Shown piece by piece: positions 24,001-27,000 of a DNA stretch of 64,000 bases. Positions within the stretch are counted from its first letter, which is position 1. Each line of letters begins with the position of its first letter. The position numbers were made by a program. The stretch is taken from assembly GCF_029227855.1 (NCBI RefSeq), contig NZ_CP074357.1; one strand, written 5' to 3'. Source of the DNA: Escherichia coli (GTDB taxonomy: Bacteria > Pseudomonadota > Gammaproteobacteria > Enterobacterales > Enterobacteriaceae).

Positions 24001-27000
24001 ACGTACAGCTTGGTTTCGCCGAGGTCGCGGATGCGCGGCGCGAAGCGGAAGCCTAGCAGGTGCATCAGGGCAAAGACGTGATCGGTGAAGCCGGCCGTGT
24101 CGGTGTAGTGCTCCTCGATCCGCAGGTCGGACTCGTGGTACAGCAGGCCGTCGAGCACATAGGTGGAATCGCGGACGCCGACATTCACCACGCGGGTGCT
24201 GAACGGCGCGTACTGGTCGGAGATATGGGTATAGAACAGCCGTCCCGGCTCGCTACCGTACTTCGGGTTGACGTGCCCGGTGCTCTCGCCCCGGCCACCC
24301 GCGCGGAAGCGCTGGCCATCGGAGGATGAGGTCGTGCCGTCGCCCCAGTGGGCGGCAAAGGCGTGGCGATACTGGTGGTTGACCAGCTCGGCCAAGGCCG
24401 CCGAATAGGTTTCGTCGCGGATGTGCCAGGCTTGCAGCCAGGACAGCTTGGCGTAGGTCAGGCCGGGGCTCGACTCGGCCATCTTGGTCAGCCCGAGGTT
24501 GATCGCATCACCGAGGATTGCGGACAGCAGCAACGTCCTGTCTTTGGCCTCGGCCCCGTCCTTCAAGTGGGTGAAGTGGCGGCTGAAGCCCGTCCAGTCG
24601 TCCACGTCCATCAGCAGTTCGGTGATCTTGATGCGCGGCAGTAACTGGCTGGTTTGGTCGATCAGCGCCTGCGCCCGATCCGGCACCGCCGCATCCAGCG
24701 GGGTGATTTTCAGCCCTGACTCGGTGAGGATGGCATCGGGCAGCTCGTTGTCCTTGGCCAGGCGGGTGACGGTGGCCAACTGCTCGTCCAGCAGCTGCAA
24801 ACGCTCTTCCAGGTACTGGTCGCTGTTCGGGTTGATCGCCAGGGGCAGGGCCTGCTCGCGCTTGAGTGCGGCGAACTTCTCGGCCGGCAGCAGGTAGTCG
24901 TCGAAGTGGCACTGTTGCAAATAGTCGGTGGTGATAAACTTATCATCCCCTTTTGCTGATGGAGCTGCACATGAACCCATTCAAAGGCCGGCATTTTCAG
25001 CGTGACATCATTCTGTGGGCCGTACGCTGGTACTGCAAATACGGCATCAGTTACCGTGAGCTGCAGGAGATGCTGGCTGAACGCGGAGTGAATGTCGATC
25101 ACTCCACGATTTACCGCTGGGTTCAGCGTTATGCGCCTGAAATGGAAAAACGGCTGCGCTGGTACTGGCGTAACCCTTCCGATCTTTGCCCGTGGCACAT
25201 GGATGAAACCTACGTGAAGGTCAATGGCCGCTGGGCGTATCTGTACCGGGCCGTCGACAGCCGGGGCCGCACTGTCGATTTTTATCTCTCCTCCCGTCGT
25301 AACAGCAAAGCTGCATACCGGTTTCTGGGTAAAATCCTCAACAACGTGAAGAAGTGGCAGATCCCGCGATTCATCAACACGGATAAAGCGCCCGCCTATG
25401 GTCGCGCGCTTGCTCTGCTCAAACGCGAAGGCCGGTGCCCGTCTGACGTTGAACACCGACAGATTAAGTACCGGAACAACGTGATTGAATGCGATCATGG
25501 CAAACTGAAACGGATAATCGGCGCCACGCTGGGATTTAAATCCATGAAGACGGCTTACGCCACCATCAAAGGTATTGAGGTGATGCGTGCACTACGCAAA
25601 GGCCAGGCCTCAGCATTTTATTATGGTGATCCCCTGGGCGAAATGCGCCTGGTAAGCAGAGTTTTTGAAATGTAAGGCCTTTGAATAAGACAAAAGGCTG
25701 CCTCATCGCTAACTTTGCAACAGTGCCGATTCAAGCAAGCCAACTTGTCGTCAAAATCGGTGTTGCAAAAACGGGAGTGACCATAGATTCCGTTTTCCAA
25801 GCGGACCCCGTGCTGTGTGGAAATCCGCCCACCTTGCCGGGCGCCGGTGCCGTGTGGAAATCCGCCCACCTTGCCGGGCGCCGGTGCCGTGTGGAAATCC
25901 ACCCACCTTGCCGGGCGCCGGTGCCGTGTGGGAATCCGCCCACCTTGCCGGGCGCCGGTGCTGTGTGGAAATTCGCCCATCTTCATGACAAAAATTTGTC
26001 AAATGACAGGCTCATGTGTGCTGATTTATGTCAGACGGGATTTTGCTTATCAATTATTGAGAACAGAAATTTTCCTGAATCATCAATACTATACTTAGCA
26101 AGTAAAGGTGTTTTCTCATTTATCTGCTTGAGAGCAGGATCAAGGAAAGATCGTTTCAACTCTGCCAAGTTCTTCTGTTGGGATTCCGGCAAAAGGAAAC
26201 GGTCATTTAACCAAGCATGAGTAGTAACCCATAAGCCTGAAGATTTGAATTGAGCAAGACTTTCATAAAGGCGGATCGTCCGTGGATTTCGAAGACTGCC
26301 ACAATCGCGGAGCGAGTAGGTGGTGAACTGGTTCGTCAGGCCGTAAATGTACCGCAGGAGTTTATGGTTAAATTCGATTTCCCAGATACCACGAGCTGAT
26401 CGGCTGCCAGCCTCTGTTAGCCAGGGGCGCGCGACGCAGTCAAAACTCCCTTCTTTCGGGTAAAAGATTACCGCAGAACGGCTTAACTCAAACACGCCTT
26501 CTTTAACATCCTTGATAGCCTGGTTACGGCTTACCTGAAAAATTTGCTGATAGTCAGCCACCTTTACTTTGAAAGTAGAGTCACCGAGTACAGCCATCTC
26601 ATCATCATCTTCGCTTACTGAAGCTGTGAAATACGTCTGCATAAGACATAACCAGAGAACGCGCTTTGCTTTTAGCGAGAGGTAGTAAGCAGCTTCGGTA
26701 AGCTCGTTAGACGGCACTGTTGCAAAGTTAGCGATGAGGCAGCCTTTTGTCTTATTCAAAGGCCTTACATTTCAAAAACTCTGCTTACCAGGCGCATTTC
26801 GCCCAGGGGATCACCATAATAAAATGCTGAGGCCTGGCCTTTGCGTAGTGCACGCATCACCTCAATACCTTTGATGGTGGCGTAAGCCGTCTTCATGGAT
26901 TTAAATCCCAGCGTGGCGTTGATTATCCGTTTCAGTTTGCCATGATCGCATTCAATCACGTTGTTCCGGTACTTAATCTGTCGGTGTTCAACGTCAGACG

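Follow-up and report, generated by a model that had tools for sequence, protein, structure and literature searches.

Rep_3 initiators with iterons are widespread. The initiator RepE of the F plasmid (PDB 1rep) has two winged-helix domains, Rep3_N and Rep3_C. The IncN1 reference plasmid R46, which shares its replicon with pKM101 and pCU1, carries at positions 31443-31780 an AT-rich stretch, a DnaA box that matches at 8 of 9 positions, 4.8 copies of a 22-bp repeat, the promoter region, and 13 codons. Directly downstream of R46 repA lie 6.5 copies of a 37-bp iteron (32510-32749), and an A+T-rich stretch, the CUP region, and resP come next. A shortened form of this region has been described as an ‘IncN1 segment’, with the structure ΔrepA-Iterons I-gshB-ΔIS1294, in the mcr-1 IncHI2/ST3 plasmids pHN6DS2 and pASSD2-MCR1 and in F33:A-:B- plasmids; its repA is cut by IS26 and accompanied by five 37-bp repeats and gshB (PMC6288184, PMC6052338).

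Here we describe a related locus in a 64,000-nt stretch of Escherichia coli DNA (the window), all of which is 99.99% identical to the E. coli plasmid pL1 (NZ_CP071712.1). A first-pass annotation had noticed an IncN-type replicon fragment between two IS26 copies. Our analysis indicates that the interval is very probably what remains, in inactive form, of an IncN1 (R46/pCU1-type) replication region, and that it travels as a passenger in the IS26-rich resistance region of an IncHI2 plasmid.

A truncated IncN1 replication region between inverted IS26 copies

The interval 25728-26712 is exactly the gap between IS26 copies 2 and 3, which are mutually inverted (Table 1). Their terminal repeats (GGCACTGTTGCAAA) define complete 820-bp elements on both sides, and the first-pass coordinates of the trapped piece are thereby exact. 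Copy 2 matches the R46 IS26 at 100% identity, while copy 3 is 99.63% identical to standard IS26 and encodes a G184N transposase variant (KRIINATLG versus KRIIGATLG in copy 2; annotated WP_001067858.1). The interval as a whole had been labeled a replicon fragment, which holds for 25810-26712 but not for the first 82 bp (25728-25809, 8% of the interval), which consist of the 61-bp end of IS4321 and the outer 21 bp of a Tn3-family terminal repeat. The remaining 903 bp are IncN DNA and comprise the five 37-bp iterons, the 47-bp spacer, and codons 14-239 of repA.

Table 1 Features of the IncN1 remnant, its IS26 boundaries, and the separated gshB half (window coordinates).
Feature	Position	Strand	Basis or remark
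IS26 copy 2	24908-25727	+	Terminal repeats at 24908 and 25714-25727; standard transposase, ORF on +; left boundary
8-bp target GATTCAAG	25728-25735		One copy of inverted target-site duplication, next to IS26 copy 2
IS4321 tail, last 61 bp	25728-25788	+	Identical to L001 6001-6061
Tn3/Tn21-family terminal inverted repeat, outer 21 of 38 bp	25789-25809	-	GGGGTCCGCTTGGAAAACGGA... on minus strand; ends the iteron array
IncN1 37-bp iterons, 4.7 units, five cores	25810-25983	-	Tandem Repeats Finder; R46 colinearity
A+T-rich spacer, 47 bp	25984-26030	-	Between rep stop codon and iterons; GC 36%; TGTCA/TGACA palindromes
ΔrepA, IncN1 RepA codons 14-239 and stop	26031-26712	-	Pfam domains; R46 identity
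Hybrid ORF (predicted), 242 aa	26031-26759	-	TTG start inside IS26; reads over junction into ΔrepA
PBRT IncN amplicon, complete, 560 bp	26153-26712	-	Primer sites 26693-26712 (-) and 26153-26172 (+)
IS26 copy 3	26713-27532	-	Terminal repeats; transposase on -; truncates repA, upstream of ΔrepA in same orientation
IS26 copy 4, inversion partner of copy 2	33999-34818	-	Terminal repeats; flanked by CTTGAATC at 34819-34826
IS4321, major part, 1274 bp including duplicated 8 bp	34819-36092	-	Inverted relative to its 61-bp tail; L001 alignment
Tn3-family repeat, inner 17 bp	36093-36109	+	Other side of IS4321; converted from L001 4718-4734
gshB (glutathione synthase)	36444-37880	-	Passenger gene of ancestral module; annotated in L001, L003, and pL1
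Truncated IS26, first 301 bp	38084-38384	+	Lone terminal repeat at 38084; 100% identical to IS26 1-301

The IncN DNA is 99.4% identical to R46 over 906 bp. There is not a single nucleotide mismatch to R46 repA across 26031-26712, the encoded protein is identical to residues 14-239 of R46 RepA, and the 47-bp spacer is identical to the R46 sequence downstream of repA. Mismatches are confined to 25809-25938, with four in the iterons and the one at 25809 in the adjoining transposon repeat. Tandem Repeats Finder reports a single array with a period of 37, 4.7 copies, 94% matches, and a score of 306, in agreement with the initial estimate of about 4.5 tandem units. The array is colinear with that of R46 and has five iteron cores on the rep strand, four of them complete and the fifth interrupted after CACAGCAC by the transposon terminal repeat.

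An origin in a non-IncN Rep_3 replicon with a coincidental 37-bp period, such as IncN2/N3, an Acinetobacter-type rep, or IncX/IncR, is not credible in light of this direct alignment to R46. The nucleotide-identical rep, the colinear iteron array, and the presence of the IncN-specific PBRT primer sites leave such a source with practically no probability, and we rejected it. The IncN assignment, initially based on the iteron length, therefore stands: the alignment of the rep fragment and iterons to R46 and the MOB-suite typing of carrier plasmids both give IncN.

The first-pass annotation had placed the gene in the Rep_3 family, which is borne out by Pfam matches to Rep3_N (E 1e-27, profile positions 5-140 of 141) and Rep3_C (E 1.5e-9). 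However, it had credited the fragment with only the 3′ two-thirds of the gene, whereas 226 of the 239 codons (95%) are retained. RepA residues 9-227 align to F plasmid RepE residues 16-233 (E 1e-29), and both proteins have the two winged-helix domains, although RepE belongs to another incompatibility group and its sequence similarity is distant. Unlike in RepE, the N terminus of ΔrepA is cut inside the sequence QSN(E/D)LTEAAY, with the IS26 junction falling within the conserved QSNELTEAAY motif that is common to RepE.

The locus thus resembles the R46/pKM101/pCU1 replicon in repA residues 14-239, the 47-bp spacer, and the 37-bp unit directly downstream of repA, but keeps nothing upstream of codon 14. 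It also has 4.7 iterons instead of the 6.5 in R46, and its array ends in the transposon terminal repeat where R46 instead has the A+T-rich stretch, the CUP region, and resP. No further IncN backbone DNA is present in the window, where homology to R46 is limited to 25810-26712 and IS26.

The remnant is almost certainly inactive as a replicon

On the 5′ side of ΔrepA, IS26 stands in place of the promoter, the ribosome-binding site, the ATG, and the first 13 codons. The upstream control or origin-like region of R46 (31443-31658), with its 22-bp repeats, AT-rich stretch, and DnaA box, is absent from the window, and no DnaA box was found in the fragment with up to one mismatch allowed. Judged from these missing parts, the fragment is almost certainly non-functional as a replicon: it would be unable to start replication because it has no repA promoter, ribosome-binding site, start codon, first 13 codons, or upstream origin-like elements. 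The earlier expectation that the piece was probably not a functional replicon fits this anatomy. We infer that the carrier plasmid replicates from its IncHI2 replicons.

The hybrid ORF that enters ΔrepA from IS26 is named ‘replication initiation protein’ by PGAP in carrier plasmids (WP_152921961.1). Because the IS26 transposase gene lies immediately upstream of this ORF and points the same way, some read-through expression of nearly full-length RepA might occur. If the predicted IS26-RepA hybrid were produced from the transposase promoter and initiated replication at or near the five iterons, the fragment would be a working auxiliary replicon and the plasmid would be truly multi-replicon. The reading frame is uninterrupted and retains 226 of the 239 RepA residues with both winged-helix domains, and the literature does call such plasmids ‘IncN1-IncHI2’ multi-replicon plasmids, but this label comes from typing rather than from an assay of replication, and those papers themselves write the gene as ΔrepA. 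No promoter was found at the junction, with the consensus scan giving one promoter-like site against 1.6 expected, and no ribosome-binding site for the hybrid ORF rises above chance. In addition, the junction disrupts the motif common to RepE, the fragment has none of the elements that precede repA in R46 (22-bp repeats, AT-rich region, and DnaA box), and it has also lost the distal iterons together with the A+T-rich stretch next to them. We therefore consider a functioning auxiliary replicon highly improbable.

The remnant is half of a known module

The module from which the remnant derives is already known, having been published for pHN6DS2 as "IncN1-IncHI2". The locus shares with the published segment an IS26-truncated repA, the five 37-bp repeats, and gshB; IS4321/IS5075 is present in some copies and missing from others. 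In contrast to the published segment, the module is split here into a rep-iteron half (25728-26712) and an inverted gshB half (34819-38384). The module circulates among IncHI2, IncF, and IncX1 plasmids, and in other plasmids examined its two bounding IS26 copies are oriented alike. At least 218 PLSDB records contain the junction between ΔrepA and IS26. Of 5426 complete E. coli genomes, 116 have it, compared with 182 that have an intact IncN 5′ region. In the module copies of pABWA45_3 and pHNFP460-1, rep is 81 bp shorter. Neither of two candidates, CP048927 and pABWA45_3, proved to be an IncN plasmid with the arrangement of five iterons, transposon repeat, and gshB beside an intact repA. CP048927 was rejected because it is an IncX1 plasmid with no rep nearby, and pABWA45_3 because the arrangement adjoins only a truncated rep. 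Despite heavy IS26 activity, hundreds of plasmids have retained the module, which could reflect either selection or hitch-hiking.

Two comparison sequences clarify the 82 bp next to the iterons. In L003, the 38-bp terminal repeat CTTAGCGTGGGATATTTTCCGTTTTCCAAGCGGACCCC, which starts with GGGG and ends with ACGCTAAG, is uninterrupted, and annotated Tn3-family transposons have termini that match it at 85-97%. In L001, IS4321 is a 1327-bp insertion inside this repeat that is absent from L003. Partridge and Hall are said to have described in 2003 a target preference of IS4321 for the terminal repeats of the Tn3/Tn21 family. In the colinear plasmid pL1, the annotation includes an IS4321 transposase. 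The position of gshB in the window was taken from a 100% alignment to L001, and the truncated IS26 beyond it, at 38084-38384, marks where the gshB-iteron-ΔrepA module originally ended on its outer side.

An IS26-mediated inversion separates the two halves

The sequence CTTGAATC at 34819-34826, beside IS26 copy 4, is the reverse complement of GATTCAAG at 25728-25735, beside copy 2. In the uninterrupted IS4321 of L001, GATTCAAG occurs once, at 6001-6008. Positions 2443-6008 of L001 correspond to 38384-34819 of the window at 100% identity, while 6001-7800 correspond to 25728-27527, and the two L001 halves overlap by just the 8 bp of GATTCAAG. This inverted 8-bp duplication shows that the module was split by a single intramolecular IS26 transposition. 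A simple IS26 insertion or a composite transposon was rejected because no match, direct or inverted, exists between the 8-bp flanks of copy 2 (GTCGAAGT and GATTCAAG), between those of copy 3 (CGTTAGAC and GTCCTGCT), or between those of the pair. The sole inverted pair of flanks joins the right side of copy 2 with the right side of copy 4. Inverted copies that bracket the inverted segment, with the 8-bp target beside each in reverse complement, are what intramolecular replicative transposition of IS26 with inversion leaves, and nothing about the arrangement is unusual.

The junction sequences show the following order of events. IS26 first cut repA after codon 13, and the segment then circulated bounded by direct IS26 copies, as IS26-gshB-(IS4321)-repeat-iterons-ΔrepA-IS26. 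Within this segment, the Tn3-family repeat had inserted into the iteron array and IS4321 into that repeat. Finally, in the line leading to the present plasmid, IS26 transposed replicatively and intramolecularly into GATTCAAG in IS4321. The resulting inversion spanned about 8.3 kb, leaving the rep-iteron half between inverted IS26 copies and the gshB half at 34819-38384. The piece had been read as the marker of a past cointegrate with an IncN-like plasmid. Its IncN derivation is upheld, but a direct cointegrate is too direct an account, with the piece instead coming from an IS26-bounded module found on IncHI2, IncF, and IncX1 plasmids and its left boundary arising later, by inversion. The left junction is common to 13 PLSDB plasmids of 230-277 kb, and the two with retrieved typing are IncHI2A. 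As a lineage marker, the inverted 8-bp duplication cleanly identifies a subgroup of IncHI2 resistance plasmids.

Possible incompatibility with IncN1 plasmids

Extra iterons supplied in trans exert incompatibility, as seen for F incC, P1 incA, R6K, and RK2. Krishnan and Iyer reportedly found in 1990 that the 37-bp repeats of pCU1 are not needed for replication and take part in copy control and incompatibility. The iterons described here could plausibly bind the RepA of an incoming IncN1 plasmid, causing mild incompatibility, as had been suggested at the outset. Both pieces of background favor a stronger role, in which the five iterons would be an active incompatibility determinant: through titration or handcuffing, they would bind the RepA of an IncN1 plasmid that enters or shares the cell, and would lower the copy number of that plasmid or displace it to the benefit of the IncHI2 carrier. 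Such a role would be compatible with a fragment that is dead as a replicon. Four of the five repeats are full-length and differ little from their R46 counterparts. Natural arrays range widely in size, with 5, 6.5, 28, and 31 of the 37-bp repeats, and such variability fits a control array better than a core origin. However, IncN plasmids themselves have 6 to 31 such repeats, against which the five on a low-copy IncHI2 plasmid are a small number, and the natural IncN plasmid pABWA45_3 is maintained with the five-iteron module in cis beside an intact replicon. Among complete E. coli genomes, no strain was common to 60 listed rows from the 182 genomes with an intact IncN 5′ region and 60 from the 116 with the truncated junction, subsets in which only ~0.6 shared strains would be expected, too few for the comparison to have statistical power. 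On balance, an active determinant appears possible but rather unlikely.

A further proposal is that IncHI2 and IncF resistance plasmids, in their hundreds, retain the ΔrepA-iteron remnant because it acts against IncN1 plasmids, either through iteron titration of RepA or through the predicted hybrid protein binding their iterons without initiation. This proposal seems improbable; if true, the remnant would be a portable, IS26-borne plasmid-exclusion module.

Consequences for replicon typing

The main importance of the remnant is diagnostic, and it offers nothing new for replication biology. The primer sequences of PCR-based replicon typing (PBRT) and a 559-bp N amplicon have been published (PMC10291401). 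The forward primer site begins at the very first retained base of repA, which is the IS26 junction, and the plasmid types as IncN because both IncN primer sites survive. MOB-suite reports IncHI2A and IncN for the carrier plasmids. PCR typing and MOB-suite thus score ‘IncN’ or ‘IncN1-IncHI2’ on plasmids without a working IncN replicon. With the truncated junction in 116 of 5426 genomes and the intact 5′ region in 182, a sizeable share of the ‘IncN’ and ‘IncN1-IncHI2 multi-replicon’ calls are probably relics.

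An R46-type repA and iteron fragment lies between two IS26 copies

The window contains six complete copies and one partial copy of IS26, located through their 14-bp terminal repeats, and the interval 25728-26712 runs precisely from the end of copy 2 to the start of copy 3, as the first-pass annotation had placed it. That annotation had described a Rep_3-like gene with 37-bp iterons and had assigned both to IncN. The gene and repeats are confirmed by an ORF at 26031-26712 on the minus strand with Pfam domains Rep3_N (E 1e-27, profile positions 5-140 of 141) and Rep3_C (E 1.5e-9), and by the only tandem array that Tandem Repeats Finder detected near the interval (25810-25983, period 37, 4.7 copies, 94% matches). 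On the rep strand the array has five iteron cores, with the fifth interrupted after CACAGCAC. Direct alignment with the IncN1 reference plasmid R46 (NC_003292) bears out the IncN assignment, giving one colinear block of 906 bp with 99.4% identity (window 25807-26712, R46 31781-32686). All five mismatches fall within 25809-25938; the iteron array has four of these and the rep coding part none. In R46, repA is followed directly by the same 37-bp unit, in 6.5 copies compared with 4.7 in the window. The product of the truncated gene (ΔrepA) is identical to residues 14-239 of the 239-residue R46 RepA, a homologue of the F plasmid RepE (PDB 1rep; E 1e-29, RepA 9-227 aligned with RepE 16-233). The earlier reading is correct in substance and wrong about the gene's extent, with 95% of it present rather than the 3' two-thirds, as well as about the composition of the first 82 bp and how the fragment arose.

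Coordinates of features in and around the fragment
Feature	Position	Transposase strand	Evidence or context
IS26 copy 2	24908-25727	+	terminal repeats, ORF
IS4321, last 61 bp	25728-25788		
8-bp target GATTCAAG	25728-25735		beside IS26 copy 2
38-bp repeat, outer 21 bp	25789-25809		
IS26 copy 3	26713-27532	-	terminal repeats, ORF
IS26 copy 4	33999-34818		
Reverse complement of target, CTTGAATC	34819-34826		beside IS26 copy 4

A transposon end and the signature of an IS26 inversion

The first 82 bp of the interval are not IncN DNA but an IS4321 end and part of a Tn3-family repeat. This left end was resolved by comparing two plasmids that carry the module, L001 with the insertion and L003 without it. 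A 38-bp terminal inverted repeat of the Tn3/Tn21 type (GGGGTCCGCTTGGAAAACGGAAAATATCCCACGCTAAG on the rep strand) closes the iteron array. Its outer end adjoins the interrupted fifth iteron and shows 85-97% matches to the termini of annotated Tn3-family elements. In L001, IS4321 (1327 bp) is inserted within this repeat, a known type of target for both IS4321 and IS5075. The repeat occupies 25789-25809 and 36093-36109 in the window and 4985-5022 in L003, with gshB ~370 bp inside it. This arrangement suggests that a gshB-carrying Tn3-family transposon once inserted into an IncN iteron array.

The complete module, as carried by many plasmids, has the order IS26-gshB-(IS4321)-repeat-iterons-ΔrepA-IS26, and its two IS26 copies point the same way. 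L001 6001-7800 corresponds to window 25728-27527, while L001 2443-6008 corresponds to window 38384-34819, inverted and adjoining IS26 copy 4, and the two blocks overlap by exactly 8 bp. The duplication of this 8-bp target in inverted orientation beside copies 2 and 4 is the hallmark of a single intramolecular replicative transposition of IS26 into IS4321, by which the 8.3 kb in between (25728-33998) was inverted. The inverted segment includes ΔrepA, IS26 copy 3, a tet(A) fragment, floR, and ISVsa3. The other 8-bp flank pairs around copies 2 and 3, read from the sequence, do not match.

Three bases set IS26 copy 3 apart from the other copies, and it encodes a G184N transposase variant (KRIINATLG; WP_001067858.1), for which higher activity than standard IS26 has been reported. 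To the left, a 1551-bp perfect direct repeat (17869-19419 and 23357-24907) lies on either side of the tet(A)-tetR(A) region. The second copy of this repeat extends to IS26 copy 2, which interrupts a Tn3-family transposase ORF (23391-24980, minus strand) that overlaps the repeat.

The fragment lacks the upstream region of an IncN replicon

IS26 copy 3 stands in place of all sequence that would precede the last base of codon 13. Compared with R46, the window lacks the promoter region, ribosome-binding site, and first 13 codons of repA, an A+T-rich stretch (31443-31556), the region's best DnaA-box match (ATATCCACA at 31445), and a 22-bp repeat present in 4.8 copies (31553-31658). Downstream, the last two R46 iterons are also absent, together with the short A+T-rich stretch beyond them, which contains a weak DnaA-like box. 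No DnaA box was found in the fragment at one mismatch or fewer, no promoter-like site above chance at the IS26|ΔrepA junction, and, IS26 aside, no other R46 or pABWA45_3 backbone DNA in the window. In R46, an 8/9 DnaA box and the A+T-rich stretch lie just upstream of the 22-bp repeats, which match the iteron core at 17/22 positions in opposite orientation. Because the 22-bp repeats and 37-bp iterons have a common core, CCCACCTTG, with the DnaA box and A+T-rich stretch adjacent, the arrangement suggests a RepA-dependent origin upstream of repA, with the 37-bp array as a control locus.

The fragment retains neither gene expression signals nor any of these upstream origin-like elements, and from this anatomy the best-supported reading is that it would be an inert relic, with the plasmid replicating from IncHI2 replicons located outside the interval. 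A 242-aa hybrid ORF, labeled a replication initiation protein by PGAP, starts at a TTG within IS26 directly downstream of the transposase gene, so that read-through expression of an IS26-RepA hybrid is conceivable. A working replicon on this basis is nevertheless very improbable, as Q13 of the conserved QSNELTEAAY motif is lost at the junction and no origin-like DNA is left. More plausibly, by analogy with general iteron biology, the five iterons may bind RepA of an IncN1 plasmid in the same cell and lead to a degree of incompatibility. The 37-bp repeats of pCU1 have been reported to act in copy control and incompatibility and not to be essential to the origin, and the wide natural range of repeat number (5 to 31) fits such a role. 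However, pABWA45_3, a true IncN plasmid with an intact repA encoding the same protein as R46, tolerates an extra five iterons in cis. They lie in a second module, gshB-IS5075-iteron-ΔrepA, in which rep is 81 bp shorter than in the window. In complete E. coli genomes, the 60 rows listed with an intact IncN 5' region and the 60 listed with the ΔrepA|IS26 junction had no strain in common, where about 0.6 would be expected.

Replicon typing and distribution of the probable relic

Although truncated, repA still yields the full IncN amplicon of PCR-based replicon typing (PBRT). Both primer sites (F GTCTAACGAGCTTACCGAAG, 26693-26712; R GTTTCAACTCTGCCAAGTTC, 26153-26172; PMC10291401) are in the window, and the IS26|ΔrepA junction coincides with the 5'-most base of the forward primer, leaving the whole 560-bp target in place. 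Its survival explains why MOB-suite calls IncN and why publications use the 'IncN1-IncHI2' label. The match of junction and primer base is probably a coincidence and not an artefact, because hundreds of independent complete assemblies share the junction.

The ΔrepA|IS26 junction is old and widespread, occurring in at least 218 PLSDB records and in 116 of 5426 complete E. coli genomes. For the left junction (IS26 copy 2|IS4321), PLSDB has only 13 plasmids, 230-277 kb in size, and the two with retrieved typing are both IncHI2A. The feature is already known and is ordinary for IS26-rich resistance regions. An 'IncN1 segment (ΔrepA-Iterons I-gshB-ΔIS1294)' with IS26-truncated repA and five tandem 37-bp repeats was described in pHN6DS2, and an IS4321-containing version in pASSD2-MCR1 (Wang et al, 2018; PMC6288184). 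The same and related segments occur in F33:A-:B- plasmids, with pABWA45_3-like IncN plasmids as the proposed source (PMC6052338), and in Salmonella IncN1-IncHI2 plasmids (PMC9769515).

Debris of the IncN replication region is far commoner in complete E. coli genomes than intact IncN replicons: 577 of 5426 carry IncN rep or iteron DNA, only 182 with an intact 5' region, and repA is truncated at several different points. Recurrent truncation points are R46 31862, 31902, 32047, and 32157/32160. Many E. coli plasmids have only the 37-bp array and the last ~20 bp of repA, with no rep gene; these matches start at R46 32441 or 32462 (for example, NZ_CP100934.1 74442-74701).

The E. coli plasmid pL1 (NZ_CP071712.1; typed IncHI2A, IncN) is colinear with window 1-45825 at 99.987% identity. 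Directly right of IS26 copy 3, from 27533 to ~27790, a frame resembling the C terminus of a Tet(A)-type efflux protein is followed by a LysR-floR-ISVsa3 (ISCR2) module, as in pL1. Colinearity stops at the IS26 at 45006-45825, the sequences diverge from 45826 on, and a further IS26 lies at 47006-47825.
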